Sequence record: OR472545.1
Length of the DNA stretch: 50,636 nucleotides
DNA from: Escherichia phage vB_EcoM_50EP
Reading direction: 5' to 3' (one strand)
The position numbers and the translations under genes were made by a program. The first letter of the stretch is position 1. Every line of letters begins with the position of its first letter. The notes below the pieces were generated by a model. It did not search any database. It saw only the letters and a program-made list of their open reading frames with translations, and had not been told where the DNA came from. Positions 14,897-38,523 of this stretch are shown in pieces.

Positions 14897-15866
14897 AATA
14901 CATGTTTGGTATGTAAGGTAGCTGCATTGTGATGTTGGTGTTGAATGGGAACTGCGCGCCAGACTGCGTTGAGTAGTTACCATAAACACTTCCTTTATGT
15001 GCCCTAACCTGACCATTTGACATTGCAACGCCTTTGTATCGTAGGTTGTTGTACCCGCCAGTTACCTCAACCATTGCGCCGCATCTTAATATCGGGAAAA
15101 ACCCATTACCTATTGATTGGTATGAGTTAGACAGCTGAAGGAATCCGCTTAAGACAAAAGGCCTCTTCACGCTGGAAAACACTACCTGCCCAGCGGCGTT
15201 TGACATTGTTAAACCAGGTCCGGCGGTTGGTGCTGTATTGTTGAATATAACAAGATCGATAGTTACTGATGCTGAGACATTATCAATTCCTGTGTAGGTA
15301 TTGTTTCTACATAGTATTCTTGCCCCGTCAAACTCAAGGGTGACGTTTGGGTTATTCCACCTTCCGAATGGTATTCCAGTAACCGGAAGTGTATAGCTTC
15401 CATTAACCGTTACAGTTCCAACGTACTGAGCAGTAAGGAGCCTGCTGTTTGATGTTATGGCTGTGAAGTTTGTTGAGTCGCTAACGAATATACCCTCACT
15501 TCCAGGTGATGCGCCTAGAACCTCAAAGCCCTGCGCGCCAAATCCAATCAGGTGGCCTGGCGATCCGTTGAAGTTTCCTATACTTATCCTACCGGTTAAG
15601 TTATTAACCCTTGAGAATCCATTCATGAAATAAACCTCTGGTATGAAGTCGAAGTCATAAACGTCAACCGCCTTTGTGGGTAATATAAAGGCTGTAGAGC
15701 CTTGAGTCATTGTCAAGCTAAAGTCTCTAGCGCTGCTCGCAGAATCGAACGTAGAGCTGCTGCTAAGGCTACCCGTTACCGCCGGCGCCCTTAATCCAGC
15801 GGTTATCTCCATTCTTGGCCTTCCGTCATTAAGGTCTATTAAGATACCTTGAGGCATTATTTCCAC
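14895..15866 (-). CDS. hypothetical Gly/Ser/Thr/Asn-rich protein, possible receptor-binding/fibre accessory protein
   Basis: 323 aa, composition typical of fibre proteins; co-oriented and overlapping with upstream lipoprotein gene. Confidence 0.3.
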
Positions 15867-16087
15867 TCCTTTGTGCCGTGATCTTTAACTGATCCAGAGA
15901 AGTTCTTGATACCATCCCAGCGGATGTCAGTTTCACCTGAAGCTACAACCACACCGCCTTTCCATTTAGCAACACAAGAACCGTTAACTTCAGTCGCACA
16001 CCAGCCGTCAGGGCGCGGACCAGAAGAACATCCTACTGTCATGATTACTGCTGCTGCGATGATTGCTGATTTGATGAAGTTAGTCAT
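15857..16087 (-). CDS. lipoprotein, Cor-like superinfection exclusion candidate
   Basis: 76 aa; signal peptide with lipobox TVGC; located beside tail fibre genes as cor is in T1/phi80-like phages. Confidence 0.45.
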
Positions 16088-16127
16088 TTTCTAATCCTTA
16101 TTAAGCGTGTTTCGTTTCGATGGAGTA

Positions 16128-16171
16128 ACTATACATGCAACTAGCGCCCGAGTCTTTAGCTATTCGTGCTA
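16128..16171 (-). promoter_or_regulatory. TAGCAC-box promoter cassette (minus strand) upstream of lipoprotein gene
   Basis: rc reads TAGCACGAATAGCTAAAG ... TATAGT ... CATCGAAACGAAAC. Confidence 0.45.
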
Positions 16172-16225
16172 TTGTATACGCGTAACCGCTGTAACTCGGT
16201 GTATGCAATCTCGTCCGCGGAAAAT

Positions 16226-16340
16226 GATATACGCGCAGTTACGCCTAGTTACGCGATAGTTACATTAAAATATCTATATATATCAACCTTCTACTATAAT
16301 TATTATTATTATATATATTACTGTGTATATCGTGTAACCA
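16226..16340. repeat. AT-rich control-region core with AGTTACG iteron-like repeats and (ATT)n tract; homologous to 35789..35905
   Basis: three AGTTAC(G/A) repeats at about 10-bp phasing, TAAAATATC, ATTATTATTATTAT; about 100 bp alignable with second locus. Confidence 0.5.
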
Positions 16341-16604
16341 CTTCTATAGAGTATTCCGCTTATAAATTTCTAATATGTATATTCATACAGTATCTAATCA
16401 CGCATACACTAATGCACCATCCGCGAAAAGTGGTATACACGATATACACGCTGTTTACATCAAGCCATGGCTGGGCTGGACAGCCATTTTATGTAACTAA
16501 CGCCATTGCATACACGTGATTACAAATATCTACATGTAACCACTTGACTAACGCAACCAAGCGCGTATAGTTACCCACATCAACAACGAACGAGGATTAA
16601 AGAG

Positions 16605-17645
16605 ATGACTAAGCCACTGTTTCAATATTTCACTTCAGAAGAAATGAGCAACGATTTCTATCACAGCAAAAGTGAATGGACTGCTGAGTATGTGTCGGGT
16701 TCATCACTTAGTAAGATTCACAGCACTTGCCCTGCGGCGTGGAAGTTTGAAATGAACTCGACTACAAAGGCTCTTGTTTTCGGCACTCAGTCACACACCA
16801 ACTTTGAGAGCAAGGCGCTGTTTGAACGTCAGTATCGCCGAGCACCGAAAGAAAGCGAGATTGAAAACGTGATAACAAGCCAGGCGGCTTTGGCAACTAA
16901 GTTAAAATCATTTGGCCTGACTGGTACAAGCGGCAAGCAATATCCAGAGTTGATTAAAATGATGGTTGATTGTGGTGAAGACCTCAACGTCATGTGGCTG
17001 ATTGATATGATCGCACAGTGTCAGGCGCGGGCCGATGGCGTGGAACTTGTTAAGGCGGAAGACTACGACGCTTGCGTCAGTATGCGCCAGGTTCTTGAGA
17101 TGATTCCTGAACATAACGCCTGCATGAACAGTGAGACAGCATTTCGTGAGTATTCATTGTTCGGCGTAATTTGTGGCGTTAAAGTCAAGGTGCGACTTGA
17201 CCACGTTGACATTATTAAAGATCCAGAAGCAATCCGTCGCATGGGTTACGATCCTGACATTCATCCTGAAATTGTCGTCATCACTGATTACAAAACGACA
17301 ATGAGCGCTAACCCGACTGAGTTCCCGCGACTGGCATTCAATCATGGATACTATCTCAAGATGGCATTGCAGCGCGACTTGTTCGTTAAATGCTTTGAGG
17401 AAACAAGACCTGTGGTTGTTCGATTGCTGGCCCAGGAGAAGAAGGAGCCTTACTTGCCGATGGCGTACCGGATGAGTAGCGATCAGCTTAAGATTGGTCG
17501 TGCGCAGTACATGAGCGTGATACACACCTTCTCAATGTGCGAAGCCAACGACGTGTGGCCTTCATACAACAACGGAGAGCCGGAAATGGAGCTTGAGACG
17601 CCTGACTGGATCATGAAGCAGTTCAAGCATATCCTGGACGCATAG
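16605..17645 (+). CDS. PD-(D/E)XK recombination exonuclease (RecB/Cas4-like fold)
   Basis: RLDHVD ... ITDYKTT motif pattern; immediately upstream of ERF and SSB. Confidence 0.5.
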   Translation: MTKPLFQYFTSEEMSNDFYHSKSEWTAEYVSGSSLSKIHSTCPAAWKFEMNSTTKALVFGTQSHTNFESKALFERQYRRAPKESEIENVITSQAALATKLKSFGLTGTSGKQYPELIKMMVDCGEDLNVMWLIDMIAQCQARADGVELVKAEDYDACVSMRQVLEMIPEHNACMNSETAFREYSLFGVICGVKVKVRLDHVDIIKDPEAIRRMGYDPDIHPEIVVITDYKTTMSANPTEFPRLAFNHGYYLKMALQRDLFVKCFEETRPVVVRLLAQEKKEPYLPMAYRMSSDQLKIGRAQYMSVIHTFSMCEANDVWPSYNNGEPEMELETPDWIMKQFKHILDA

Positions 17646-17685
17646 CACTTTTTGCTAAACACGAACACGGTGATTTGCTATAATC
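17643..17685 (+). promoter_or_regulatory. TAGCAC-box promoter cassette
   Basis: TAGCACTTTTTGCTAAAC, 7-bp stem CGGTGAT/ATCACCG with TGCTATAAT in loop. Confidence 0.45.
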
Positions 17686-17721
17686 ACCGTAAATCAAACG
17701 AAGTAAACAAAGGTATATATA

Positions 17722-18378
17722 ATGCGTACATCAGAGAAGTTTTCGAATGTTTCAGCCGCTCTAATTGCAGCTAAAAAGCAGTTTGCCATAGCAAAAAAAT
17801 CAGGCTTTAACACTCACCTGAAAACCCATTACTCAAACTTAACGGACGTTTTGGAGGCCGTAGAGCCAGCGTTAAAAGAGCATGACCTTATGGTTATCCA
17901 GTCAAATCTGGACACGTCAACCGAAAAGGTAATGCACATTGAGACGCTCATCCTTCACAGTTCCGGCGAGTGGCTTGCGTTCCAGTACAACATGCCGATC
18001 GAGAAGATTAGCGCCCAGGCTTACGGATCAACAACTTCATACGGTCGCCGTTACGCATTATGCGCAGCGCTTGGAATCACTCAGAGCGATGACGACGCTG
18101 AAATCGCTAAGCGCACGGCAGCGGACTACAAAAAACTTATCACCAATTGTGAAAAGCTGGAAGACCTCCAGGTGATTTATAAGAGCGCTAAGGGTTCACT
18201 CGGAGCGGCGGAATGGAAGATTGCAGAGGACCACTTGCAGAAGCGCAAGGCTGAATTGAGTATTGGTAGCGCTCGCGGTTTCCAGCCAGCGAAAAAGGCA
18301 GATACGCAAAAGGTTGATGATAAGGTTGCCAATGCACCTTCCGAGCCTGTACAATCTGAATCCATCGAACAATTCTAA
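17722..18378 (+). CDS. erf: ERF-family single-strand annealing protein
   Basis: N-terminal region resembles ERF family; sits between exonuclease and SSB. Confidence 0.5.
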   Translation: MRTSEKFSNVSAALIAAKKQFAIAKKSGFNTHLKTHYSNLTDVLEAVEPALKEHDLMVIQSNLDTSTEKVMHIETLILHSSGEWLAFQYNMPIEKISAQAYGSTTSYGRRYALCAALGITQSDDDAEIAKRTAADYKKLITNCEKLEDLQVIYKSAKGSLGAAEWKIAEDHLQKRKAELSIGSARGFQPAKKADTQKVDDKVANAPSEPVQSESIEQF

Positions 18379-18416
18379 TTAACGGGGCTTCTGCCCCATC
18401 CAAAAAGGAAAATACA

Positions 18417-18875
18417 ATGCCACACGTAATCACTGGTCAGATCCGCAAAGCCCCATACACCAAAGAAGGCAGCAACAACAACGGTCGTTGGAAAATGTAC
18501 GCCGTTGAACTGTCAGAACGCATGAAGATTCGAAATCAAAATGGGGAGGATGAGACGGTTTACAGTAACTACCGCGCCACGTTCTTCGCAAAAGAAAACG
18601 TTATGCAGTGGTATGATGAAGCGTTCCAGGAAGGTAAGGTTGTATCAATTTCTGCCGACACGCTTCACCTGGCGTCACGCCAGGGTAATGACGGCACGGT
18701 GTATGTAACCGCCGAAATGATCCGGCCTCAGTTGCAATTCAGCCAGCGTGAACCAGCGCAGCATGGACAAGGTCAGCAACAACAACGCCAACAGGCTCAG
18801 CAACAGCAGCAACAACGCCAGCCTCAGCAGCAACCGAATCAATCAATGCAATTCGACGATGACATTCCTTTCTGA
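18417..18875 (+). CDS. ssb: single-stranded DNA-binding protein
   Basis: Gln-rich linker and canonical acidic C-terminal tip FDDDIPF. Confidence 0.75.
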   Translation: MPHVITGQIRKAPYTKEGSNNNGRWKMYAVELSERMKIRNQNGEDETVYSNYRATFFAKENVMQWYDEAFQEGKVVSISADTLHLASRQGNDGTVYVTAEMIRPQLQFSQREPAQHGQGQQQQRQQAQQQQQQRQPQQQPNQSMQFDDDIPF

Positions 18876-18883
18876 TAAAAGAT

Positions 18884-18908
18884 AAAGCCCCTTTCGGGGC
18901 TTTTTTAT
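18884..18908. terminator. bidirectional rho-independent terminator (AGCCCC-TTTC-GGGGCT)
   Basis: GC hairpin flanked by A-run and T-run between convergent genes. Confidence 0.6.
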
Positions 18909-21241: not shown

Positions 21242-21257
21242 CTCCTATATTGTTTTT

Positions 21258-21275: not shown

Positions 21276-21293
21276 TGCATTGTATCACAACAA

Positions 21294-22887: not shown

Positions 22888-24990
22888 ATGGCTATACGCA
22901 TTAAATCCATTAAAAAACAGATAGAAGAACTTGGCCCGCAAAAGATTAAAGAGATTCAGGATAAATTCACATTTGGCGACATGGTTCCTTATGAGTATCA
23001 GTGCGTAATGTATGACGAGATCGGCAAGCGCATTGCTCGCTATAAGCATCCATTCATCGTTAAGGCGTCGGTGTCGGCAGGTAAAACAATCGGCTTTGCC
23101 ATGATCGCATCGCGCGTCAAAGAGATGGGCTTGTCGATGATGATTCTTGCACGCCAGGGCGACATTGTTGCTCAGGATAGTGAAGAGATCTCAAACTTCG
23201 GCGTTCCTAACTCAGTTTATTGCGCTGGCCTGAACACGAAATCAGCTTACTTTCCTATCGTTGTAGGTTCGGAAGGTTCTGTTGCAAATGGTCTGTTTAA
23301 GGCGCTTGGTGACTTTACACCCATGGTTCTTGGGATTGATGAGTGCCACCAGGTGGATTGGGAAGACCTTGCCGCCGCCATCGACAACGAAGAAACGATC
23401 GAGATGATGCTAACTGAAAAAGATGAGCGCGTATTTGTTGACTACCCGAAAAACAGCGAAGGTTATGTCAATGGATACCTTGACGGCGTAGAGGTTGGCG
23501 TCCAGGTGATGGATAAGCAATTGCTGATAAGCCGGAAGACTGGCGAGCCTGTTCTTGGAACAAAACGAAGCCAGTACACGATCATAATCACTGAATTGAT
23601 GCGCCGCTGCAAAGAGAAGAACGGGAAGGAATTACGCATCTTCGGCATGACTGGTTCGGAGTTCAGAGGAACAGCGCCAATTGTTGTCGATAACCCTAAG
23701 CTGCCAGGATTCTGGCGTGAGCAGGTTACTAACATCGACACCAGCTACCTGATTGAGTTCGGCTCTGTTGTTCCAACAATCTTCGGAAGTGTCGGTGACG
23801 CTGGATATGATCTGGATGAGTTTAAGGCGTCAAGTCAGGATGGAACGGCTGACTTTGGTCAGAAAGAAATGAAGGCGATGGAGAAGAAAATCCATGATAA
23901 CGCCAGCATGACCAAGCGAATAATGGGAATGGTAGTCGAAGAGGCGAAGAAGCGAAACGGTGTACTGATTACGTGTTCAGGCCAGCGCCATTGCAAAGAG
24001 GCGGCGAGCTATCTGCCACCTGACGCTACCTATGAGATCATCACGGAGAAGACGAACACCAAAAAACGACAAGCGATACTGGAGGCGGCGAACCGTGGCG
24101 AGATCAAATACATATTCCAGGTGGTAGCGCTAACCACTGGCGTTAACGTTCCGTTTTGGGATTTTTCGGTAATCCTGCGCAAGATCGGCTCACTTACCCT
24201 GCTAATACAGTTGCTTGGTCGAGGTATGCGATTGCTTAAGCCGTGGCAAAAAGCGATGGGAATGGTGAAAGAAGATCACCTGGTATGGGATTTCGCTGGC
24301 ACGATGGATGAGCTTGGTCAGCTTTACTTCGATCCGATTCTTGAAGAGGCTCAGTACCAGCGCCGCTTTGATGGTAAGAAAGAGCCGAAAAAATGTGAAC
24401 TGTGCGGAACCGAGAACAGCTTTTACGCCCGCCGTTGCATTCACAGAGACGAAAACGGCAATCGTTGTGAGTATTTCTGGAAATCTCGAATCTGTGAAGA
24501 CCAGATTGATGATCGCACTGGTGAGGTGATTGTTAAGGGATGTGGCGCTGAGAATGACGTAGTGGCGAGAATATGCCGTTGCTGTGATGTGAGCCTGAAA
24601 GATCCCAATGATAATCTGACTGGTAAGGCTTACACCAAAAACGACTGGTGCACAGTGAATGGTTTTGAAGTAACGCTGACACGCAATCAGACTGGTATTC
24701 TTTATCGTTACGATCTGACAGATTCAGTTGGAGTTAATTTCATCGCGTATGAAAAGTTCTTCCCGCAGTCAACGGCACAGGTATGTCACACGATATGGAA
24801 ACAGAAAGGGGTGCTGCCTCATGTGCATGACAGTAAGATCGCAAAGTTAATGGCAGCTTACAGAAGTGCTAAAATGATTTTAAACAACGCTCACCACATA
24901 GCGCATCCAGTGCGGGTAACTCACCGCAAGAATGCAAAAGGTGAGGACATCATTTCACGTAAGGATTTTGGATTGGACGGTAACTTATGA
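22888..24990 (+). CDS. SF2 DNA helicase
   Basis: Walker A ASVSAGKT, DECH box (GIDECHQ), C-terminal Cys-rich zinc-ribbon-like segment. Confidence 0.7.
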   Translation: MAIRIKSIKKQIEELGPQKIKEIQDKFTFGDMVPYEYQCVMYDEIGKRIARYKHPFIVKASVSAGKTIGFAMIASRVKEMGLSMMILARQGDIVAQDSEEISNFGVPNSVYCAGLNTKSAYFPIVVGSEGSVANGLFKALGDFTPMVLGIDECHQVDWEDLAAAIDNEETIEMMLTEKDERVFVDYPKNSEGYVNGYLDGVEVGVQVMDKQLLISRKTGEPVLGTKRSQYTIIITELMRRCKEKNGKELRIFGMTGSEFRGTAPIVVDNPKLPGFWREQVTNIDTSYLIEFGSVVPTIFGSVGDAGYDLDEFKASSQDGTADFGQKEMKAMEKKIHDNASMTKRIMGMVVEEAKKRNGVLITCSGQRHCKEAASYLPPDATYEIITEKTNTKKRQAILEAANRGEIKYIFQVVALTTGVNVPFWDFSVILRKIGSLTLLIQLLGRGMRLLKPWQKAMGMVKEDHLVWDFAGTMDELGQLYFDPILEEAQYQRRFDGKKEPKKCELCGTENSFYARRCIHRDENGNRCEYFWKSRICEDQIDDRTGEVIVKGCGAENDVVARICRCCDVSLKDPNDNLTGKAYTKNDWCTVNGFEVTLTRNQTGILYRYDLTDSVGVNFIAYEKFFPQSTAQVCHTIWKQKGVLPHVHDSKIAKLMAAYRSAKMILNNAHHIAHPVRVTHRKNAKGEDIISRKDFGLDGNL

Positions 24991-25415
24991 TTACAGATAA
25001 AGGCGACTACCTGGAATATTACACTCCAGACAAATCGGATACATGGACCGAAAGCAAACACCAGATCGATTGCGTGACCTGGACTAAAGTTAGGCATGGT
25101 GATTTGCTGTTCTGGCACGCCGTTAATGAGAACAAGAAGCACATCCACACGGCGCTAAAGGATGCTCAGAGCGGGTTATTGAAAGGGGTTAGTGATTTTG
25201 TATTCCTTTTAGGCCCGTTCGGTAAATATCCGTTCGGGGCCATAGAATTGAAGCGCGTCAATAAGAGCGGGAAAGGAAAGGCATCACCAGTCAGCAAGGA
25301 GCAGAAAGATTTCCTCCGGCGTGTCCGAGAGCGCGGCGGGTTTGCGGCGGTGGCATACGGGCAGGAGGAATACAAGAAAGCCGTTGCTGATATGCTGAAT
25401 AGCACGAATTGCTAA
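24987..25415 (+). CDS. VRR-NUC domain nuclease
   Basis: 142 aa; pattern D..FLLGPFG...AIELK ... KEQKDFL consistent with VRR-NUC. Confidence 0.45.
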   Translation: MITDKGDYLEYYTPDKSDTWTESKHQIDCVTWTKVRHGDLLFWHAVNENKKHIHTALKDAQSGLLKGVSDFVFLLGPFGKYPFGAIELKRVNKSGKGKASPVSKEQKDFLRRVRERGGFAAVAYGQEEYKKAVADMLNSTNC

Positions 25416-25442
25416 AGACGAATCGGCGGGGTGGTGTATTAT
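25400..25442 (+). promoter_or_regulatory. TAGCAC-box promoter cassette
   Basis: TAGCACGAATTGCTAAAG ... TATTAT ... CATCGAAACGAAGT; box overlaps upstream stop codon. Confidence 0.45.
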
Positions 25443-25481
25443 CACCTCATCGAAACGAAGTAACCAACCAAGGAAATCAAA

Positions 25482-25754
25482 ATGAAAAAGTCAATCATCG
25501 CTCTACTGGCAGTTGTGGCAATGGCAGGTTGTGCAGAAGATACCAAGTTTTACGATTGCGGTAAGGAATCATTCACAGTAACCAAGTCGCAGATTGTTTC
25601 AGACAAGGGCGTTGTTATTGAGCGTGAAGGCGATCACTATGAACTGCAAACTTTCTTGGGGAAGGCGGTTTACAACGTGACTGAAAGTCAGGTCAAAGTT
25701 AGCGTCGGCGGGTTCGTCGCTGTTAATAACTGCAAAGTTACCGAGGTTAAATAA
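25482..25754 (+). CDS. lipoprotein
   Basis: signal peptide + lipobox MAGC. Confidence 0.5.
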   Translation: MKKSIIALLAVVAMAGCAEDTKFYDCGKESFTVTKSQIVSDKGVVIEREGDHYELQTFLGKAVYNVTESQVKVSVGGFVAVNNCKVTEVK

Positions 25755-25755: not shown

Positions 25756-26484
25756 ATGATCGACTCAAACGACAAGGATACTCATGACGCATTCGTTAGC
25801 TTTGAGCAGATCGAGCGTGAAAATTTTGTTACTAATGCGCTTGTTCCTGGCAATGGTCATTACCAAGCGGTTAAGCCAGACACCTTCTATCAGGTAACTG
25901 GAAACAGATACGCAGGAAGTAAGACGCCTGACGCAGTGCGTGACCTTTGGGCCACTGATCGAGAAGTGATCTCATGGATGGAGTCGCGTTATGGGAAGTA
26001 TGACATTGACGCCGCCGCCAGCGCTAACAATGCTGTTTGCGAAAAGTTCTATAGCGAACAAGTGAACTGCCTAAAAATCTGGTGGGGTAGCAATAAGCAC
26101 ATCTGGCTTAATCCGCCGTACTCACATCCAGATCCTTTCGTGAAGAAAGCGATTGAGCAAATGGAGCACAACAATCAGATTGATATGTTGCTTCCTGGTG
26201 ATAACTCTACGGCATGGTTTGCCGAGGCCCGTCGCAACGCGGCTGAAATCATCTGGATTGAGACTGACATCACAGAGATTGACAGTCAGGAATATTGCCG
26301 GACGGGGCGGTTGGCATTCATCTCTGGACTGACCGGAAAGCCTGTCGATGGCAACAATAAAGGTAGCGTGATTTTTGTCATGCGAAAACTGAAAGAAGGC
26401 GAGACGCAGAAAACGACATACGTTAGCGTTGCCGATATTTGTCCTGGCGTAAGCCGCAAGAAACCACGTAAACGGAGTGTTTAA
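25756..26484 (+). CDS. dam: DNA N6-adenine methyltransferase (phage Dam family)
   Basis: NPPY motif (WLNPPYSHPD); about 240 aa as in T1-type Dam. Confidence 0.65.
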   Translation: MIDSNDKDTHDAFVSFEQIERENFVTNALVPGNGHYQAVKPDTFYQVTGNRYAGSKTPDAVRDLWATDREVISWMESRYGKYDIDAAASANNAVCEKFYSEQVNCLKIWWGSNKHIWLNPPYSHPDPFVKKAIEQMEHNNQIDMLLPGDNSTAWFAEARRNAAEIIWIETDITEIDSQEYCRTGRLAFISGLTGKPVDGNNKGSVIFVMRKLKEGETQKTTYVSVADICPGVSRKKPRKRSV

Positions 26485-26701: not shown

Positions 26702-26744
26702 TAGCACGAATTGCTAAACATACCCGCCGCCGCGCGGGTATACT
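26702..26744 (+). promoter_or_regulatory. TAGCAC-box promoter cassette
   Basis: TAGCACGAATTGCTAAAC ... GGTATACTTCTTTCATACC hairpin. Confidence 0.45.
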
Positions 26745-28714: not shown

Positions 28715-28757
28715 TAGCACGAATTGCCTAACACCATAGCGCCGGAAGGCGCTATAT
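28715..28757 (+). promoter_or_regulatory. TAGCAC-box promoter cassette
   Basis: TAGCACGAATTGCCTAAC ... GCGCCGGAAGGCGC hairpin ... TATATT. Confidence 0.4.
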
Positions 28758-29289: not shown

Positions 29290-29772
29290 ATGAGCATAAA
29301 GAATAAGGTTATTGGCTCCGCTGTTGCTGGGGCTTTGGCAATATCAGTTCCGTTTCTGAATGAATATGAGGGGGTTGAGTACAGGCCATACAAGGATGTT
29401 GCAGGGGTGTGGACGGTTTGCGCTGGTATCACTGGCTCAGATGTTGTTCTCGGTAAGGTTTACACTCAGCGAGAATGTGACGCCCTCCTTGTGAAGCATT
29501 TATCAATTCACCAAAAGGCCGTAGATTCTGCGCTAAAGGTGGATGTTCCCGTAAGTACCAGGGCAGCGCTATACTCTCTTAGCTTTAACATTGGCGCAAA
29601 TGCAATGAGAAAATCAACTGTTATCAGGCGCATGAATAGTGGCGACCTAAAGGGTGGGTGCAATGCATTCTCCATGTGGAATAAGATTACAGTTAACGGA
29701 AAGAAAGTGGTCAGCAAGGGCTTGGTTAACAGGCGCAACGGGGAGATTGAATTATGTTTAAAGGAATTGTGA
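29290..29772 (+). CDS. SAR endolysin (T4-lysozyme-type muramidase)
   Basis: N-terminal Gly/Ala-rich signal-anchor-release-like segment, E...D...T catalytic pattern. Confidence 0.65.
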   Translation: MSIKNKVIGSAVAGALAISVPFLNEYEGVEYRPYKDVAGVWTVCAGITGSDVVLGKVYTQRECDALLVKHLSIHQKAVDSALKVDVPVSTRAALYSLSFNIGANAMRKSTVIRRMNSGDLKGGCNAFSMWNKITVNGKKVVSKGLVNRRNGEIELCLKEL

Positions 29773-30140
29773 TTGCAGCGGTGATTATGCTTTCTGGTTG
29801 CTCTGCTACATCGGCTCTGACTGGTTTAATTGGCAGTAAGCCAGAAATTAGCGCGCAGGCTGGGGCCGAGAACGTGAAGCAAACGGTAGGCGTTACCGGA
29901 AAGGTGGATAAGTCAAACGACAACGACACCACTATCAAAGATTCAAAGGTAGGAAAGGTTGATACGTCAAACGGGAAGTCTGTCAGCACCTCAAGCATCA
30001 AGGCTGACACTATCATCGCTGATAAGATTGAGATCAGGAATGATGACTCTAAAGGTAATCTGATTTCCGGACTGGTATTCCTGTTCATCGGCATTGCGAT
30101 GATTGCTATTTCAATCTGGCTGGAACGACGCAAAAAATAA
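29754..30140 (+). CDS. unimolecular spanin
   Basis: N-terminal lipoprotein signal (LSGC) plus C-terminal TMD in one 128-aa protein, as in T1 gp11. Confidence 0.55.
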   Translation: MFKGIVIAAVIMLSGCSATSALTGLIGSKPEISAQAGAENVKQTVGVTGKVDKSNDNDTTIKDSKVGKVDTSNGKSVSTSSIKADTIIADKIEIRNDDSKGNLISGLVFLFIGIAMIAISIWLERRKK

Positions 30141-32265: not shown

Positions 32266-32297
32266 CTTATTCTCTCTCGTTGTTATCGATGGGTATA

Positions 32298-32548: not shown

Positions 32549-32898
32549 TTGTAAGCCGCCTCAAACTTATACATCCCATAACCAACATCATATCCAACCT
32601 CATCATCACGAGTGAGTTGCCAGCCGTCGCCGTCATTGTCGTAGATGTAGCCGGCATTACGACCTAATCCAGCGTGCATGGAGATCTGATAGCGCTTTCC
32701 TTCAGTGAATGATTTCTTAAGTGGATTGCTGTGGTCAACTTTTGTACATAGCAGGGTTTTGGTCTTAATGTAGCGCCCCTTGACGTCCAGGTTAACCCAC
32801 TTGCCATCAACCTTGATTTGCTCTACCTCATCTTTCACGCGAGCTTTCAGCATGCGGTTATCTGATGTGACGAAGTTTTTGGTGATAGTGGTAGCCAT
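32545..32898 (-). CDS. hypothetical protein
   Basis: 117 aa, ATGA-coupled to downstream gene. Confidence 0.4.
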   Translation of the reverse strand: MATTITKNFVTSDNRMLKARVKDEVEQIKVDGKWVNLDVKGRYIKTKTLLCTKVDHSNPLKKSFTEGKRYQISMHAGLGRNAGYIYDNDGDGWQLTRDDEVGYDVGYGMYKFEAAYK

Positions 32899-32936
32899 GA
32901 TTATTTTCCTTTAGTGTGTTTCGTTTCGATGAGATG

Positions 32937-32979
32937 AATATACAGGAAAAGCCCCGAAGGGCTTTAGCAATTCGTGCTA
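32937..32979 (-). promoter_or_regulatory. TAGCAC-box promoter cassette (minus)
   Basis: rc: TAGCACGAATTGCTAAAG ... GCCCTTCGGGGC hairpin ... TATATT ... CATCGAAACGAAAC. Confidence 0.45.
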
Positions 32980-33489
32980 TCTTCCATGGTTTTCATGAAA
33001 ACCAAGCCTTGCATTGGCTGACATTCTCATGCATACAGCCTCAAACCAATCTTTTGACGTTCCGAGCTTTATATTTCTCCTTTTTCCACCATCCTTTATC
33101 TCAACCTGAGCCAGCCAAGTGTTTCTATCAGACCTCCACACAACGCCGCACACGCCGCTTTTGTTTAGTGGGCTTTTGCTGAAATTTCTACAATTTCCAG
33201 ATCTGGAAACAAGCCTGTGATTGCTGTCGGAATTGTCATCTCTTATGTGATTTATGTGATCAACCTCCATCCCCTCTGGTATCACGCCGTGCCTCATCTC
33301 CCAAATTATTCTATGATGAGGGTGGCATACTCCGTTAACCTCAGAATAAAGGTATCCATTCATTACATATCCTGCTAAATCGCCAGGTCTTATCTGATTA
33401 TTTCCTCTAATCCAAAAAAGCCTGTCATTCACTAGTTCAAAATGCTTTGTCCAGTCATTACTTATTGCTTTCATAAATCGCTCTCGCAA
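32977..33489 (-). mobile_element. HNH homing endonuclease with AP2-like DNA-binding domain
   Basis: HRIIWEMRHG ... VDHINHIRDDN ... N HNH pattern followed by GVCGVVW...W.A...GK AP2-like segment. Confidence 0.6.
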
Positions 33490-34126
33490 AACCTTCCGGT
33501 GTTAATGAGCGGAGTACCTTTGTCTTTGCAGACTTTCCGCCGCAGTATTTCCAGGCCCAGAAGAATCCAATGCTCTCAACTGGCTTTTTAATAGGTTCAA
33601 CAAATCCATTGCCACACCAAATGCAAGTCTTTTTATTGTAAGCATTACGAGTGGGCATTCTTGGGTGATAAACATCATCGTGATCAACGTAACCGCCATA
33701 ATCGCAAGGATTGAAATAGAAGTCAGGCTTACGCCACAGGCTTGACAGTTTGCCTACAGGATTCTCAACCATCCATGGGGCATTAAAGTGATTGCCGACT
33801 TCTTCGACTAACTTCGCGTTAGCCAGAGCATACGCCAGTTCATCTTCCCCGCGCTCATGCTGTGATCCAGACTGAGAGAACAGCGTGCAATCAGGAAAGC
33901 CGATAACCATTTGCGCCGGAGGCAGGCCGAGCAATTCACACTTATTGATGAAATCCTTGTCAATCCACATGTTGACGTAGTGGATGTTCTCATGCTTCAT
34001 CTTGATGTGATATTCGCCATGATTGCCGGAGTCCGCGTTGAAGCAGTAGACGGTGTGACCATCTTCCGCCCATGGGAGGCCAGCAATACCAGAACCGTCG
34101 AACAAGCAGTAAATTACCTTTTTCAT
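33458..34126 (-). CDS. putative DNA (cytosine-5) methyltransferase-like protein
   Basis: FDGSG (motif I-like), GFPDC..FSQSG (PC motif-like), ENPVG (ENV-like); short at 222 aa so uncertain. Confidence 0.4.
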   Translation of the reverse strand: MKKVIYCLFDGSGIAGLPWAEDGHTVYCFNADSGNHGEYHIKMKHENIHYVNMWIDKDFINKCELLGLPPAQMVIGFPDCTLFSQSGSQHERGEDELAYALANAKLVEEVGNHFNAPWMVENPVGKLSSLWRKPDFYFNPCDYGGYVDHDDVYHPRMPTRNAYNKKTCIWCGNGFVEPIKKPVESIGFFWAWKYCGGKSAKTKVLRSLTPEGFARAIYESNK

Positions 34127-34296
34127 TTCTTCTTTGCCTTCTCAATTGCTTTCTGTGTGATTTCAAAGCTGCTTTGTAGGTCGGATTCTGTTTTGCGGCT
34201 CATGTTTAGATCGCTTGCTGTAAGTCTATACCCTGGTCGCGAGATTCCCGCTACAACCTGCATATCACCACAATTCAAATCGGATGGCTTGAGCAT
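34123..34296 (-). CDS. small hypothetical protein (57 aa, below track threshold), translationally coupled to the methyltransferase-like gene
   Basis: manually translated; ATGA overlap at 34123-34126 and TAATG overlap at 34294-34298. Confidence 0.3.
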   Translation of the reverse strand: MLKPSDLNCGDMQVVAGISRPGYRLTASDLNMSRKTESDLQSSFEITQKAIEKAKKK

Positions 34297-34535
34297 TATT
34301 TCACCTCATCAAACGTTGCGATACCAGGGATAAACATTCCGACCTTCCAGCCTGCGATAGCAATCCAGCCAGAATCGTGCTTGTGCGGTCTCTCAGCGCC
34401 ATTAATCACCCATTCGTTCGGGATTGTCTTACCGTTAATGATTAGCGCCTCAGCGTCGTATACAGAGCCTTTTACGAACGGTGTCAAAACCTTCTTGTCG
34501 GTGCTGGTGATTACGTTAGTGCATTTTACTTTCAT
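34296..34535 (-). CDS. hypothetical protein
   Basis: 79-aa ORF in operon. Confidence 0.4.
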   Translation of the reverse strand: MKVKCTNVITSTDKKVLTPFVKGSVYDAEALIINGKTIPNEWVINGAERPHKHDSGWIAIAGWKVGMFIPGIATFDEVK

Positions 34536-34544
34536 GATCTCACC

Positions 34545-34760
34545 TTAGAACGGGATTCCGTCATCAAATTTTAAGCGGTAGTCGAAATCATCCCCGATCC
34601 CGTCTACTGACTGGTTGCTTTCGCTTTCCAGATCCATATCCATAACGCCCAATGCGTCATCGAGTTCGATGCATCCGTAAGCAACCTTGATCGCCCACTC
34701 TTCATTGAGTCCGGCTTCAAGTGCCGCGCGGTGGCGGCTCCAGAAATTATCTTGATGCAC
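34545..34760 (-). CDS. small acidic protein with SSB-like C-terminal tip (FDDGIPF)
   Basis: 71 aa; C-terminus DDFDYRLKFDDGIPF resembles SSB tail FDDDIPF of this phage's own SSB. Confidence 0.45.
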   Translation of the reverse strand: MHQDNFWSRHRAALEAGLNEEWAIKVAYGCIELDDALGVMDMDLESESNQSVDGIGDDFDYRLKFDDGIPF

Positions 34761-34762
34761 TG

Positions 34763-34987
34763 TTAGCTCCAGGAATTGATGTAAAGTGAGTTATCGTTTA
34801 ACAGGTTGACCATCTCAGCACGGGTAAGGCTACGGATGATTGATCCTGGATGAGTGCCAACAACGTAGCGGTCGAACTCACGGCGCGTAATGGTGATTTG
34901 GCTTACGCCTGCGGCGCGGTCCAGCTTGACGATTGCACGGCCTTTTGCTTCGATGTGTGCTACTACGTTCTGAGCTTTAACTGACAT
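34763..34987 (-). CDS. hypothetical protein
   Basis: 74-aa ORF after cassette. Confidence 0.4.
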   Translation of the reverse strand: MSVKAQNVVAHIEAKGRAIVKLDRAAGVSQITITRREFDRYVVGTHPGSIIRSLTRAEMVNLLNDNSLYINSWS

Positions 34988-35023
34988 TTTTACTTCCTCT
35001 TTGTGTACTTCGTTTCGATGAAA

Positions 35024-35068
35024 TGATTATGCCTCATTCCGTGAGGCTTCGTTTAGCAATTCGTGCTA
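35024..35068 (-). promoter_or_regulatory. TAGCAC-box promoter cassette (minus)
   Basis: rc: TAGCACGAATTGCTAAAC ... GCCTCACGGAATGAGGC hairpin ... CATCGAAACGAAGT. Confidence 0.45.
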
Positions 35069-35070
35069 TT

Positions 35071-35262
35071 TCAGAATTTAACTTTCTCGACTACCTGGAC
35101 CATCTCGTATCCAAGGCGGTAACTGTCACCAAGGATTAATCGGCCCATGAACTGATCTTGCGTGAAGCTCTCCTTGCCCATGGTCCGAAGCGCTCCGTGA
35201 TGGATGATGGTGTCGCCTACCTTCACGTCGTTCTTGTGCGTCAAAACAATTTCGTTAGCCAT
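35071..35262 (-). CDS. hypothetical protein
   Basis: 63-aa ORF. Confidence 0.35.
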   Translation of the reverse strand: MANEIVLTHKNDVKVGDTIIHHGALRTMGKESFTQDQFMGRLILGDSYRLGYEMVQVVEKVKF

Positions 35263-35275
35263 TATGCTGATCCCC

Positions 35276-35458
35276 TTACATGTGTTTCATGTAGAAAGCG
35301 ATTTCACGGATGTTGTCCTCTGGATGAGCCTTCACGACTACCGCGAACATCTTCTCAACCAGCGACTTGGTGCTCTCAGGGTTGTAACCTTCCTGGACCA
35401 GCATGGCGATAGTGTTTTCGATGGTAACTGGTGAGTTCTTGTTGATGCGCTTAGCCAT
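35276..35458 (-). CDS. hypothetical protein
   Basis: 60-aa ORF after cassette. Confidence 0.35.
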   Translation of the reverse strand: MAKRINKNSPVTIENTIAMLVQEGYNPESTKSLVEKMFAVVVKAHPEDNIREIAFYMKHM

Positions 35459-35494
35459 GATGATTTCCTTTAGTGCGTGCCGTTTCGATGAGGT

Positions 35495-35538
35495 AATAAT
35501 AGCTAATCACTCCTGATCGGTCATTAGCAAAAAGTGCT
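35495..35538 (-). promoter_or_regulatory. TAGCAC-box promoter cassette (minus)
   Basis: rc: TAGCACTTTTTGCTAATG ... TATTAT ... CATCGAAACGGCAC. Confidence 0.45.
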
Positions 35539-35552
35539 ATTCGTTCGATTTA

Positions 35553-35665
35553 TGGATTGTTGCAGCTATTGCAATGATTAACTTCACTATTGCACATATA
35601 GCAATATTGCATCCTTTGCAATGACGTTTTCGATTGTTGCGAATTGAGCAATGATTCATTGATGG
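35553..35665. repeat. cluster of at least 7 TTGCA(A/T) / GCAATGATT direct and inverted repeats
   Basis: ATTGTTGCAGCTATTGCAATGATTAACTTCACTATTGCACATATAGCAATATTGCATCCTTTGCAATGACG...TTGCGAATTGAGCAATGATTC. Confidence 0.5.
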
Positions 35666-35788
35666 GGGGAATGATGGGGTGAGATCTGATCCCCTGATCG
35701 CCTGGTAGGATTTTCCCGCCACACGTTTCTAGCGCATACGCGTTATGCATGTTATGCTCTGTAGACAAATCCATCCGGCGTGGAATCA

Positions 35789-35905
35789 GGTACGCATATA
35801 ACGCCTATTTACGCTATGGTTACAATAAAATATCCTTATATAACAACCCTTTATCTATATTATTATTATTATTATATATATATGTAGATAATGTAGATAA
35901 GGGAT
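35789..35905. repeat. AT-rich control-region core with GGTTACA motifs and (ATT)n tract; homologous to 16226..16340
   Basis: TTTACGCTATGGTTACAATAAAATATCC...ATTATTATTATTATTATATATATAT alignable with first locus. Confidence 0.5.
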
Positions 35906-36174
35906 ACGAGATATTGCGATAGTTTTCTATGATACATTCTGACACTTGTAAGAATGGGATGACATTGTAGGAATAAAAAGGCATATATGGGGCAATCCTC
36001 CGCGAAATTTGATGTACAAGCTGTACACAGTGGTTACATTGAGCTATATCTGGCCCGAGAGGTCGCAAAACGTAACTAAGTCGAACATTTGCATCAATAA
36101 CACTTGATAACATGTAACCACGCTGGTAATATTGCACCCATCTTAACGAAGACCACCAATCAGGAGTAACATCT

Positions 36175-36696
36175 ATGTCAAATCATAATCAACCCGTAAG
36201 CCTGGGCGATGTCGTCCGCTACATGGCGGAGCAGGCGCTCAAGTCCGAGAACCGCAGCTACCACGTTCCAATCCACCTGATAGCTCGCCAGATGTACGGC
36301 CTCACGGCTGATGATATGGGCAGAATCAATGCCGACGACCTTGAGGCTGGCGGTAAGTACAGCGTTGCAAAGCTGAAAGCCTCGTACGTCTCTAACACGG
36401 TTGCCAGGATGCCAGAGATTCAGGCGGCGAACGTTCGGGCCAAGCTGTCAATCAAGGATGGCGACTTCGGGGATGATGTAGATGTTCGATGTGCTTACAT
36501 CACCCTGGTTGATGGTGCGATCCAGACCGGAACACGACACAAGGGTGACGCGGAAAAGGAGGCGGTCATCGTTGAAAGGTTCAAGTCTCGGTTGCTCAAG
36601 ATCACACCGAACGTCATCGACCTGCAAGGTGAGCAGAAAGAAGGTGCGCTCATTGCCCTGGCTCGCTACCATGAAATGATCAAGGATACTAAATGA
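36175..36696 (+). CDS. hypothetical early protein
   Basis: 173-aa ORF, first gene after AT-rich region, RBS AGGAG. Confidence 0.45.
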   Translation: MSNHNQPVSLGDVVRYMAEQALKSENRSYHVPIHLIARQMYGLTADDMGRINADDLEAGGKYSVAKLKASYVSNTVARMPEIQAANVRAKLSIKDGDFGDDVDVRCAYITLVDGAIQTGTRHKGDAEKEAVIVERFKSRLLKITPNVIDLQGEQKEGALIALARYHEMIKDTK

Positions 36697-37262
36697 TGAG
36701 CATGTTTGATTTCAGTGAAGATAAACTAACAGATGAGCAGGTGATTGAAGTTGCCATGATTGATGGTCTACTTCCGCTGCGAGTTGCGATCAGTCATAAC
36801 GGATACCGACAGTCGTTCAAATACTGGTGCAGCGCGGAAGAGATGCTTCGTGTCAAGCTCGACAGAAAGCTCGCCGTCGTCACCCATAAGATACACGACC
36901 AGGCGAAAAGAGGTAAGGGAGTTGTAGGCATTCGATCAACATACGAGGCGATCAGGAAGTTGCATCCTTTCGTCGGGCGCAATGGTGTCATGAATGACCT
37001 GAATGATAACATTCTGCCAGCGCTCCAGGGCGCCGGAATAATTTGCGTTATTGGTGACAAGATATATGCTCACCCTGCATTGGTTGGTATGGATGGTCGC
37101 GACGTCTATAAGTGGTGCAACGCCTGGCGCGCTGTGGAGCGCCGCAAATCTCAGAGCAAATTGCAGTCCAGCTCAGATCTGATTCATGGCTATGATGCAG
37201 ATGAGGTCAGAAAGGCCATCCAGTTCTACCGGAAAGCGAAATCTCTCCTGAACGGTGAATAG
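36693..37262 (+). CDS. mini-paralog of the P-loop ATPase (N- and C-terminal segments only, ATPase core absent)
   Basis: MFDFSEDKLTDEQV...LPLRVAI..NGYRQS and KRGKGVVGIRSTYEA...GDKIYAHPALVG align to the ends of the 30682..32265 product. Confidence 0.45.
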   Translation: MMSMFDFSEDKLTDEQVIEVAMIDGLLPLRVAISHNGYRQSFKYWCSAEEMLRVKLDRKLAVVTHKIHDQAKRGKGVVGIRSTYEAIRKLHPFVGRNGVMNDLNDNILPALQGAGIICVIGDKIYAHPALVGMDGRDVYKWCNAWRAVERRKSQSKLQSSSDLIHGYDADEVRKAIQFYRKAKSLLNGE

Positions 37263-37302
37263 CACGAATTGCTAAACCAGTTCCGCAAGGACGCGGTATA
37301 TT
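37260..37302 (+). promoter_or_regulatory. TAGCAC-box promoter cassette
   Basis: TAGCACGAATTGCTAAAC ... CCGCAAGGACGCGG ... TATATT ... CATTGAAACGAAAT. Confidence 0.45.
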
Positions 37303-37333
37303 GAACTCATTGAAACGAAATAGGAACATCACC

Positions 37334-37564
37334 ATGAGCTACACGATCGCCACAATGCGCACATCCACCAGGGAGCAGCGAAAGAGCCGTAAGCAGGTTA
37401 TCACCAAGCGAATCGAACGTAATGCCATGAGATACATGACGGCTGAGCAGGCCGAGAGATTCATGCGCGCCATCAAGTCCGACCTTGTGGAATTGATGGA
37501 TATTGGAAGCGCCGCCGGATACCAGTCAGGCCGTAACGATGAGCGCAATAGCACGAATTGCTAA
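37334..37564 (+). CDS. hypothetical basic protein
   Basis: ATG 37334 with RBS AGGAAC; track N-terminal extension rejected. Confidence 0.35.
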   Translation: MSYTIATMRTSTREQRKSRKQVITKRIERNAMRYMTAEQAERFMRAIKSDLVELMDIGSAAGYQSGRNDERNSTNC

Positions 37565-37591
37565 ACAATAAATCGGGTAGTCAGCTATGAT
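37549..37591 (+). promoter_or_regulatory. TAGCAC-box promoter cassette
   Basis: TAGCACGAATTGCTAAAC ... TATGAT; box overlaps upstream stop. Confidence 0.4.
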
Positions 37592-37621
37592 TGCCCTATC
37601 AACAACGAAGAGGAAATGATT

Positions 37622-37828
37622 ATGGAAACTGTACGTATTGACGACGTTCACTTTGACCAAGCAGAGGTCAGCGTCACGATGGGAACCGCTCGTGGGCATG
37701 TTGTTAGCCTAGACTTTAATCCTGACGGCTACGCAGACTGTCAAACACTGATGCAATACTCACCTGATGCGGCCCGCAAATTAGCGGCGGCACTAATCCT
37801 GGCAGCAGAAGAGGCAGAAAATCAATGA
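37622..37828 (+). CDS. small protein, paralog family member A
   Basis: shares DFNPD...Y.P..AR.LAAAL..AAEE pattern with 37825 and 38603 ORFs. Confidence 0.4.
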   Translation: METVRIDDVHFDQAEVSVTMGTARGHVVSLDFNPDGYADCQTLMQYSPDAARKLAAALILAAEEAENQ

Positions 37829-38043
37829 GAGACATTCGAGTTAACTCATCATGGAATCAGGAAACGGAAATCTCAGTAATCAAGGTTCCGTTCGGAAAGA
37901 TGCGTAAGCGCGTGCACCTGGACCTTTCGCCGGATTCGCAAGTGGATGGCGCTGGCATGACATACACCGCAGAGCAGGCGCGCGAACTTGCTGCGGCACT
38001 CATCAAAGCGGCTGAGGAAGTGGAGGCGGAAGTCGATGAGTAA
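37825..38043 (+). CDS. small protein, paralog family member B
   Basis: LDLSPD...YTAEQARELAAALIKAAEE; ATGA-coupled to A. Confidence 0.4.
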   Translation: MRDIRVNSSWNQETEISVIKVPFGKMRKRVHLDLSPDSQVDGAGMTYTAEQARELAAALIKAAEEVEAEVDE

Positions 38044-38236
38044 ATTCAGGATCGCATTGATTGACACAACAACCGCCTTCGGTCATCCGGTCAAGTGGTA
38101 TGCCGTCCAAAAACGGGTGGCTTTGTTCTGGTGGGTTACGGTTGGGCACACCAGCCAGTTATCCCAGGCTCGCTACTGGCTGCATAAGTCCGGCGCACCG
38201 CATCGCAAAGAGAAAGTAGTGAGGATTATCGAATGA
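38036..38236 (+). CDS. hypothetical protein
   Basis: ATG 38036 overlapping upstream stop. Confidence 0.3.
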   Translation: MSKFRIALIDTTTAFGHPVKWYAVQKRVALFWWVTVGHTSQLSQARYWLHKSGAPHRKEKVVRIIE

Positions 38237-38523
38237 AGAAACTAATTTTATTAGCAGCACTGGCTCTGGCTGGATGTGATTTCGGAAGCACCCGCGTAGA
38301 TTCAGAGGCTCGGCAGAAGATGCCAGTGAATGTCAACGATCGCGTCCAGGTTGTGAAGATTCAGGAGTTCAGGGATGAACTGGCATATGAGAACGTCAGA
38401 GCGATATACGTCATCACCGATAAGGACACTGGTCAGGAATACATCGGCTTAAGCGGTGTCGGGATCGTGGAAGTTGGTCGCCATGGTTGCGGCAAGGGAT
38501 GCTCCAGAGAAGATGAGCGATAG
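38233..38523 (+). CDS. lipoprotein
   Basis: signal peptide with lipobox LAGC. Confidence 0.5.
   Translation: MKKLILLAALALAGCDFGSTRVDSEARQKMPVNVNDRVQVVKIQEFRDELAYENVRAIYVITDKDTGQEYIGLSGVGIVEVGRHGCGKGCSREDER

Follow-up and report, generated by a model that had tools for sequence, protein, structure and literature searches.

Introduction

Two kinds of small phage lipoprotein, Cor (phages T1, phi80, N15 and HK022) and Llp (phage T5), are known to block the receptor FhuA. Both are outer-membrane lipoproteins of ca 60 mature residues with one internal disulfide, their genes adjoin that of the receptor-binding protein (RBP), and the proteins act from the periplasmic face (PMC9586334). A further case is Rtp45 of phage Rtp, a lipoprotein of ca 6 kDa with a disulfide between Cys30 and Cys38, which has been seen by cryo-EM in complex with Shigella LptDE-LptM (PDB 9RPS). 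It sits at the periplasmic outer-membrane interface of the closed LptDE, and its hairpin extends up the lumen of LptD and displaces extracellular loops 4 and 5, which leads to a clash with the RBP (PMC12685063). In the present work we consider three small lipoprotein genes, called LP1, LP2 and LP3 (Table 1), in the DNA of Escherichia phage vB_EcoM_50EP (OR472545.1). The whole stretch of 50,636 nucleotides that was analyzed is called the window below.

The original prediction, made from the letters of the sequence, was that all three genes may encode superinfection-exclusion factors comparable to Cor and Llp. The present analysis gives them different statuses. Carrying these genes is mostly ordinary, and there is one useful lead, namely LP2. 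We consider it fairly probable that LP1 is the exclusion lipoprotein cognate to an LptD-type receptor-binding module, that a second exclusion factor is the likeliest role of LP2, and that LP3 is probably an inner-membrane protein and not a receptor blocker.

Results and Discussion

The lipoprotein genes of the window

The window (50.6 kb) represents all or nearly all of the genome of a T1-like siphovirus that belongs to the Drexlerviridae, genus Nouzillyvirus. Its nearest relatives are the Escherichia phages CJ19, TH21, GaoY1-9D, BUCT-XGG-1, P817 and PH1062, which GenBank places in the same family and genus. The three open reading frames (ORFs) are present at exactly the coordinates claimed, with the lipoboxes claimed and with canonical signal peptides: each has an ATG start, a Shine-Dalgarno-like sequence, a basic N-terminus and a hydrophobic core. 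The locations had also been given correctly, LP1 following the tail genes, LP2 lying in the replication region and LP3 in the early small-gene region.

When the window is scanned with a strict pattern for lipoprotein signal peptides, exactly four ATG-started genes are found, compared to a chance expectation of 0.06 ± 0.24 (maximum 1) in 200 first-order Markov resamples. Besides LP1, LP2 and LP3 these include a T1 gp11-type u-spanin at the end of the lysis cassette (ca 29.3-30.1 kb), at a position equivalent to that where the records of T1, Rtp and TLS annotate a spanin (PMC11447400). The three predicted genes are thus real, while the list was incomplete, as this fourth one had been overlooked. 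A PROSITE-like rule applied to all ORFs and alternative starts returns the same four genes plus a few antisense or weak ORFs. LP1, LP2 and LP3 do not look like spanins themselves, since they lie outside the lysis cassette, lack a C-terminal transmembrane segment and have no adjacent i-spanin.

All three genes are under purifying selection. LP1 differs from its counterpart in phage TR1 by 18 synonymous and no non-synonymous codon changes; the corresponding numbers are 5 and 0 for LP2 against CJ19, 3 and 0 for LP2 against P817, and 9 and 2 for LP3 against CJ19. The lipobox is kept in homologues.

LP1 and its receptor-binding protein

LP1 matches the Pfam family PF24052 (Phage_lipoprotein) over residues 1-75 with E = 1.3e-35 and 121.7 bits, the cut-off being 27. 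It can be aligned to Rtp45 without gaps at 73% identity (BLASTP, E = 4e-42), and the Rtp45 chain of the cryo-EM structure (PDB 9rps_D) is matched with E = 2.1e-35. The two proteins share the length of 76 residues, the VGC lipobox context and the positions of all three cysteines (Cys20, Cys30 and Cys38), which includes the pair that forms the disulfide in Rtp45. The lipobox region of LP1 reads TVGC followed by SS, that is, with a +2 residue of the outer-membrane type.

The genetic arrangement is also the same. LP1 lies upstream of, and overlaps, a gene for an Rtp44-type RBP with a DUF6453 domain, and the pair is on the strand opposite to gpJ, a layout that corresponds to rtp43-rtp44-rtp45 and is found in phage TR1 as well. 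The end of LP1 runs into the start of the RBP gene, which makes co-transcription of the pair likely. The RBP is 93% identical to that of phage IME542, which has been modelled and predicted to bind LptD (PMC13035648).

By all sequence-level criteria, LP1 is a superinfection-exclusion lipoprotein of the Rtp45 family. As it shares 73% identity with the Rtp45 of PDB 9RPS, it would be expected to bind LptDE. The terminal receptor of the phage can then be predicted to be LptD. It should be pointed out that LP1 comes from a Nouzillyvirus while Rtp45 comes from an Rtpvirus. What weighs against this reading is the low identity of the partner RBP to Rtp44, 43% over the full length.

The mechanism would then be as follows. 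LP1 would be made together with the Rtp44-type RBP from a promoter of its own. By homology to Rtp45, it would, after export and lipidation, reach the periplasmic leaflet of the outer membrane, where it would bind the periplasmic side of the closed LptDE with its hairpin pushed into the lumen, and the resulting shift of extracellular loops 4 and 5 would leave the RBP of an incoming or progeny phage unable to bind. This is already-known biology and conceptually nothing new; its use here is that the terminal receptor can be predicted.

The co-occurrence of LP1-type genes and RBPs is very close. The tblastn searches gave 354 phage records for the LP1 family and 352 for the DUF6453 RBP, with near-identical taxonomic make-up. 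For a view of the gene contexts we took 87 Drexlerviridae loci from IMG/VR, each centred on the helicase gene and extended by 10 kb on either side, so that they take in the Dam region as well as the locus after gpJ. The loci were scored by local tblastn and a lipobox scan, and association counts were made over 57 of them. These are not independent, many being weberviruses, and the co-occurrence statistics are inflated by this kinship. An LP1-family gene is present in 9 of the 10 loci with a DUF6453 RBP and in none of the 47 without it (Fisher p ~1e-9, overstated by kinship), and all intact DUF6453 loci among the IMG/VR and reference loci scored have one.

The gene need not adjoin the RBP. It does so in the window, TR1, Rtp and the loci L068, L069, L071 and L074. 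In four other loci from at least two lineages (the weberviruses L036, L049 and L089, and L084), it lies at a distance of ca 10 kb and fills the slot bordered by the VRR-NUC nuclease and Dam methyltransferase genes, which LP2 occupies in the window.

A side observation concerns the SH6/Shfl1-type phages (L068, positions 3494-3724 on the minus strand, as well as L069, L071 and L074). Their lipoprotein has the signal peptide MKKLITII.AAFILTGC, and this being nearly identical to that of T1 Cor, naive searches label the protein as Cor. The mature domain is of the Rtp45 family, and the protein was therefore rejected as a link between the Cor and Rtp45 families.

Comparison with Cor and Llp

Cor and Llp are functional analogues of the proteins discussed here, and homology to them had been proposed as a check of the exclusion role. 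The outcome was negative: none of LP1, LP2 and LP3 has detectable homology to Cor or Llp in the mature domain. In BLASTP comparisons of the mature domains no pair gave a better value than E = 4.5. The similarity between LP1 and T1 Cor is confined to 17 signal-peptide residues, and nothing is left of it between the mature domains. The matches to the PHROG family of Cor (phrog_1119) are weak, with E ~2e-3, and involve mostly the signal peptide or N-terminus. Profiles of LP2 and LP3 run against the PDB sequences matched no Llp chain, and a fold search with the LP3 model gave no informative match. On the basis of the mature-domain BLASTP, the PHROG, Pfam and NCBIfam scans and the PDB profile searches, homology of the three proteins to Cor and Llp was rejected.

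The gene context known for Cor and Llp, beside an RBP of FhuA type (gp31/gp32 in T1, pb5 in T5), is not found in the window either, where a DUF6453 cassette is present and homologues of gp31 and gp32 are not. LP2 and LP3 lie 10 kb and 22 kb, respectively, from the RBP locus. A genuine Cor orthologue does exist at the RBP locus of the relative BUCT-XGG-1, with none in the window. What LP2 shares with the two known proteins is the spacing of the cysteines: C1, C10 and C68 of 74 residues in LP2, C1, C11 and C58 of 62 in Llp, and C1, C9 and C57 of 59 in Cor.

LP2 and the Dam slot

We now turn our attention to LP2, which holds nearly all of the interest of the finding. The sole family matched by LP2 is phrog_7420 (E = 1.3e-34), an uncharacterized PHROG that contains gp60 of phage TLS. 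Pfam (no match at E <= 1), NCBIfam and PADLOC gave nothing beyond the generic lipid-attachment motif. The mature form has 74 residues, with the lipidated Cys1 followed by Cys10 and Cys68, that is, one extra cysteine pair, as in Llp, Cor and Rtp45. As the +2 residue is alanine, sorting to the outer membrane is predicted. The invariant positions of the family are C1, Y8, C10 and C68.

In a collection of 5.8 billion proteins, no close relative falls below 78% identity, and all of them lie on contigs of ca 50 kb. A tblastn search gave 231 phage records, of which 13 are near-identical copies from Nouzillyvirus and ca 218 are homologues at 30-40% identity from Klebsiella weberviruses and from TLS-group phages of Citrobacter, Salmonella and Escherichia. 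The gene is always in the VRR-NUC/Dam slot, as seen in the window, KP36, 1KOFFS, TLS, IsaakIselin and ca 30 IMG/VR loci. TLS gp60 and KP36_057 (phrog_7420) agree with LP2 in slot, length, cysteine pattern and predicted fold, at 30-39% identity, and the models of TLS gp60 and LP2 superimpose with a template modelling (TM) score of 0.84. The difference is that in TLS and the weberviruses this is the only candidate exclusion lipoprotein, whereas in the window it coexists with LP1. We note that TLS gp60 is annotated with 140 residues, while the lipoprotein starts at an internal Met and has 92 (L103, 38231-38653).

The case for an exclusion role is built on the content of the slot in the relatives, which is an LP2-type gene, an Rtp45-type gene or nothing. 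In the webervirus KP36 the slot contains an LP2-type gene, and in FZ10 it contains one of Rtp45 type that is 52% identical to LP1. Over the 57 loci, lipoproteins in the Dam slot and at the RBP locus are almost mutually exclusive. In T1-type loci (gp32/gp31 with Cor) and in loci with an adjacent LP1-type gene the slot is empty, the gap measuring 74-288 nt, and where the Dam slot does hold a lipoprotein, there is none after gpJ. From this exchange with Rtp45-family genes and this complementarity with the lipoproteins of the RBP locus, an exclusion-type role of LP2 is suggested. Moreover, directly in front of LP1 and of LP2 stands a perfect copy of one and the same promoter-like element (see below).

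An exclusion role is also favored by the distribution of the family. A member is present in 21 of the 22 loci without an RBP cassette, where gpJ is of type J1 or J2, as compared to 2 of the 35 cassette-type loci (Fisher p = 2e-12). J1/J2 C-terminal modules of gpJ without a separate RBP gene have been described for TolC phages (PMC8594841). All TolC phages that we checked, that is TLS, LL5, U136B and DanielBernoulli/Bas08, have the gene (TolC typing from PMC8594841).

These counts would also fit a scenario in which LP2 is a leftover, the cognate exclusion protein of an ancestor with a gpJ C-terminal extension as in TLS and the weberviruses. Nouzillyvirus would have gained RBP cassettes later, and LP2 would now exclude only other kinds of phage or be on its way to being lost. 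Both the 21 of 22 against 2 of 35 distribution and the presence in every TolC phage checked favor this, as does the fact that weberviruses with a DUF6453 RBP have replaced the LP2-type gene by an Rtp45-type one, while those with gp31/32 cassettes have mostly lost it. However, LP2 is the best-conserved stretch of its region in Nouzillyvirus. Its nucleotide identity to CJ19 and P817 is 98.2-98.9%, with only synonymous changes, compared to 85-95% in the flanking genes, which suggests either recent horizontal homogenization or unusually strong constraint; this speaks for a gene that is actively maintained or has spread recently, and against decay. At the protein level, LP2 is 98-100% identical within Nouzillyvirus whatever the cassette, and the 100% identity in 10 relatives with different cassettes is the opposite of what decay would give. 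Also the phage IsaakIselin/Bas10, which depends on YncD, keeps a family member. We thus consider the leftover scenario improbable.

The same comparisons tell what LP2 does not follow. CJ19 and GaoY1-9D have DUF6453 with LP1, BUCT-XGG-1 has gp32/gp31 with Cor, and all of them keep LP2. The gene is retained with modules for YncD (Bas10), of FhuA type (BUCT-XGG-1 and L030) and of LptD type (the window and GaoY1-9D), and for this reason it does not track the terminal receptor of its own phage. A strict role as the cognate blocker of TolC or J-extension phages is contradicted by Bas10, by BUCT-XGG-1 with its FhuA-type cassette and Cor, and by the window itself. A hidden J1/TLS-type receptor domain in gpJ of the window was likewise rejected, as no 50-residue segment of this gpJ is closer to the LP2-bearing phages.

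The interpretation that we prefer is that LP2 is a second exclusion factor, independent of the RBP cassette and acting on a component of the envelope; we put its chances at close to even. LP2 would then belong with LP1 in one functional class, would likewise be anchored in the outer membrane and face the periplasm, and would jam or mask some envelope protein on which other phages depend. The phage would retain it regardless of which RBP cassette it carries itself.

A number of observations speak against this interpretation. The retention of LP2 with YncD, FhuA-type and LptD-type modules, with Bas10 as the case where YncD dependence is experimental, is not what a simple cognate blocker would show, and no 50-residue segment of the window gpJ is preferentially shared with the LP2-bearing phages. 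The kinship among the 57 loci, mentioned above, inflates the association statistics for LP2 as well. No similarity of LP2 to Cor, Llp or Rtp45 was found by BLASTP, by profile search of the PDB sequences or with PHROG. Neither did a fold search with the LP2 model match any Cor or Llp model or structure, to be read with the reported inaccuracy of the AlphaFold 2 models of Llp (PMC9586334) and of the AlphaFold 3 models of Rtp45 (PMC12685063).

The closest fold neighbors of the LP2 model must be counted on the same side. The predicted fold is a small 8-stranded β-barrel, and the nearest matches to this predicted model are the MliC/PliC lysozyme inhibitors. LP2 could instead be a periplasmic inhibitor of peptidoglycan hydrolases, functionally like MliC/PliC or T4 Spackle, and not a receptor blocker; it would then guard the infected cell against lysozymes, for example muramidases that other phages carry in their tails or use as endolysins, or it would adjust the lysis brought about by its own phage. 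The likeness to MliC/PliC (E. coli YdhA/MliC, PDB 2F09) comes from a predicted model of a generic fold, and neither a Pfam match (E <= 1) nor, by profile, a PDB sequence match to these inhibitors was obtained, and the motif of their active-site-inserting loop is absent from the invariant columns of the LP2 family. This inhibitor role, which we judge to be quite unlikely, and the leftover role are the main rivals of LP2 as an exclusion factor.

If the exclusion reading is carried further, the VRR-NUC/Dam slot would be a second exclusion locus that swaps content with the locus after gpJ, the family of LP2 and TLS gp60 would represent a new β-barrel class of exclusion lipoprotein, without kinship to Cor, Llp and Rtp45 and possibly directed against TolC or a different envelope protein, Nouzilly-type phages would deliberately pair a cognate blocker (LP1) with this heterotypic one, and LP3 would be an inner-membrane-anchored periplasmic factor acting after adsorption. 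We offer this larger combination tentatively and regard it as somewhat doubtful. To our knowledge, no exclusion factor has been described for the TolC-targeting T1-like phages (TLS, LL5, U136B and Bas08), in which the LP2-family gene of the Dam slot is the sole lipoprotein gene besides that of the spanin. Should this family indeed block TolC or a different envelope protein, a fourth structural type would be added to the ways in which small periplasmic lipoproteins jam a receptor, and the family would be relevant to phage-steering ideas based on TolC. The pattern of slot swapping and complementarity also provides annotators with a simple rule for exclusion genes that do not adjoin an RBP.

In IsaakIselin (L112, 1367-2741), and also in L016, L048, L064 and L079, the YncD-type cassette consists of three genes on the reverse strand. 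It encodes a protein of 110-125 residues with an ordinary, non-lipoprotein signal peptide, which could be an exclusion or accessory factor.

LP3 and its family

LP3 matches uncharacterized PHROGs only (phrog_16585, E = 2e-11). While its close relatives are of Nouzilly type, the family as found by tblastn and profile search is wide. The profile was made from the concatenated mature domains of LP2 and LP3, and the matches were then split by two hidden Markov models. The members come from Drexlerviridae (NBD2, PaulSarasin and LF82 phages), an Enterobacter phage, a Hafnia phage, jumbo phages of Serratia, Pectobacterium and Burkholderia, prophages and metagenomic contigs, so that the hosts range from E. 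coli to Burkholderia among the 119 clusters listed. A lipobox is present in 111 of these 119, and the core GVSGVGI..H..GK..DER is nearly invariant. LP3 thereby marks a large lipoprotein family, with more than 100 clusters and no Pfam entry, that is common to small siphoviruses, jumbo phages and prophages.

In E. coli, an aspartate at position +2 is a Lol-avoidance signal that keeps a lipoprotein in the inner membrane. LP3 has this residue after its lipidated cysteine (C-D-F), and retention in the inner membrane is predicted for this reason. The same residue is found in NBD2 (C-D-N), Enterobacter MII_001 (C-D-Q), Hafnia Pocitis76 (C-D-G) and an E. ludwigii prophage (C-D-N), and it is conserved among the members from phages of enterobacteria. 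On these grounds it is unlikely that LP3 acts as an outer-membrane receptor blocker. LP3 would instead be held in the inner membrane facing the periplasm, where it would act on something conserved in the envelope or periplasm and not on an outer-membrane receptor; if it excludes phages at all, this would, speculatively, take place after adsorption.

Membrane-anchored or inner-membrane proteins that block injection are well known, such as Imm and Sp of T4, SieA of P22, gp15 of HK97 and the lipid-anchored Ltp of Streptococcus phage TP-J34. They offer a possible functional analogy for LP3, as phage-encoded factors at the interface of the cytoplasmic membrane and the periplasm that could act after adsorption. 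The difference is that LP3 is likened to them by analogy only and that its family is found in non-exclusion contexts as well. As a speculative link to a step after adsorption, some groups of siphoviruses have been found to need DcrB, SdaC or MetQ (bioRxiv 10.64898/2026.04.02.716166).

Two results weigh against this inner-membrane reading. First, aspartate is the commonest +2 residue among the 111 members with a lipobox but accounts for only 31 of them, followed by G (29), A (12), E (9) and S (9), and Asp+2 as a family-wide feature had to be given up as only partly true. Second, the seven contexts that were inspected are heterogeneous.

One of the seven is a lysis cassette. In the E. ludwigii prophage mentioned above (GCA_054382735.1, L107, 6001-6312), the homologue P0045 lies between a GH19 endolysin and an Rz/Rz1 pair. 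This, together with the occurrence of the family in jumbo phages and with one homologue in an ordinary chromosomal neighborhood beside MinCDE and Fur, is what can be said for a role of LP3 in lysis or in the envelope generally, for example in modulating the endolysin, the spanin or the state of the peptidoglycan, instead of in exclusion. The remaining contexts, however, are early or replication regions near DNA methylases, LP3 of the window is in the early region ca 8 kb from the lysis genes, and LP3 matches no lysis protein in fold or family. We therefore find a lysis or general envelope role fairly unlikely. The more specific possibility that LP3 is a spanin was rejected, as the sole homologue in a lysis cassette sits beside a complete Rz/Rz1 pair.

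The proposal that LP3 is a receptor blocker is thus not borne out, considering its inner-membrane signal and a family that extends across unrelated hosts and to one ordinary chromosomal neighborhood. The exclusion role originally suggested for all three proteins stands for LP1, as a close Rtp45 homologue, and is plausible for LP2 from the genomic context.

Two minor points concern LP3. The homologue in NBD2 (KX130668, L005, 1435-1755) is in an unannotated frame, the annotated coding sequence NBD2_05 being in another one. Furthermore, residues 46-72 of LP3 (38368-38448) show a weak 27-residue match to UzuA of PADLOC (E = 2e-4 in a single-protein search) and to phrog_26160. The UzuA match is probably due to chance or to a common motif, and apart from it PADLOC returned nothing for LP1, LP2 and LP3.

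Lipoprotein census and gene order

The gene order of the window is that of T1 and Rtp: structural and tail genes, the gpJ-like fibre, a short reverse-strand cassette, recombination genes, lateral fibre, primase, helicase, VRR-NUC, Dam, lysis genes and blocks of small early genes. The coordinates of the features discussed here are collected in Table 1.

Table 1. Lipoprotein genes, neighboring features and copies of the promoter-like element in the window.
Feature	Position	Strand	Details
gpJ-like central tail fibre	11485..14868	+	J0-type C-terminus, the type with a separate RBP
Bidirectional terminator	14874-14891	both	between gpJ and the LP1-RBP pair
DUF6453/Rtp44-type RBP, predicted LptD type	14895..15866	-	323 aa; putative cognate partner of LP1
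LP1	15857..16087	-	76 aa; lipobox TVGC, lipidation at Cys20
Perfect element copy heading the LP1-RBP unit	16111..16170	-	AGCACGAATAGCTAAAGAC ... TGTATAGT ... CATCGAAACGAA
VRR-NUC nuclease gene	24987..25415	+	left border of the Dam slot
Perfect element copy heading the LP2-Dam unit	25401..25459	+	
LP2	25482..25754	+	90 aa; lipobox MAGC, lipidation at Cys17
Dam N6-adenine methyltransferase gene	25756..26484	+	right border of the Dam slot
u-spanin, T1 gp11-type	29754..30140	+	lipobox LSGC and C-terminal transmembrane segment; fourth lipoprotein
Nearest element copy upstream of LP3	37550..37568	+	2 mismatches
LP3	38233..38523	+	96 aa; lipobox LAGC, lipidation at Cys15
Element copies, plus strand	25401-25419, 26703-26721, 28716-28734, 37261-37279, 37550-37568, 39595-39613, 43632-43650	+	
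Element copies, minus strand	16152-16170, 32960-32978, 35049-35067	-	
Weaker element copy	21259	+	
Weaker element copy	22324	-	

The possession of three such genes had been considered notable, an impression that a census of the relatives weakens. With the same scan and the spanin included, T1 has three lipoproteins, Rtp four and TLS two. Without the spanin, Rtp has three, T1 has two and TLS has one, which is the LP2-family gene. The extra small lipoprotein gene of T1 is in the early region, at the position of gp72 (L002, 2099-2272), and those of Rtp are rtp3 in the early region and rtp34 in the tail region (L003, 1120-1383 and 16380-16766). None of these three is related to LP2 or LP3.

A repeated promoter-like element

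The promoter-like element in front of LP1 and LP2 occurs in 12 copies in the window, as compared to 0.01 expected. All copies are intergenic and directed at downstream genes. The layout consists of ATAGCACGAATTGCTAAA, a spacer of ca 18 nt and (T)GTATAnT, often with TCATCGAAACGAA, followed by a ribosome-binding site and ATG. The nearest copy upstream of LP3 is probably the one at the head of the small-gene operon in which LP3 lies. TTGCTA and the -10-like box are farther apart than the two boxes of a standard sigma-70 -35/-10 pair, and for this reason the upstream block may be an operator or a UP-like site for a phage regulator.

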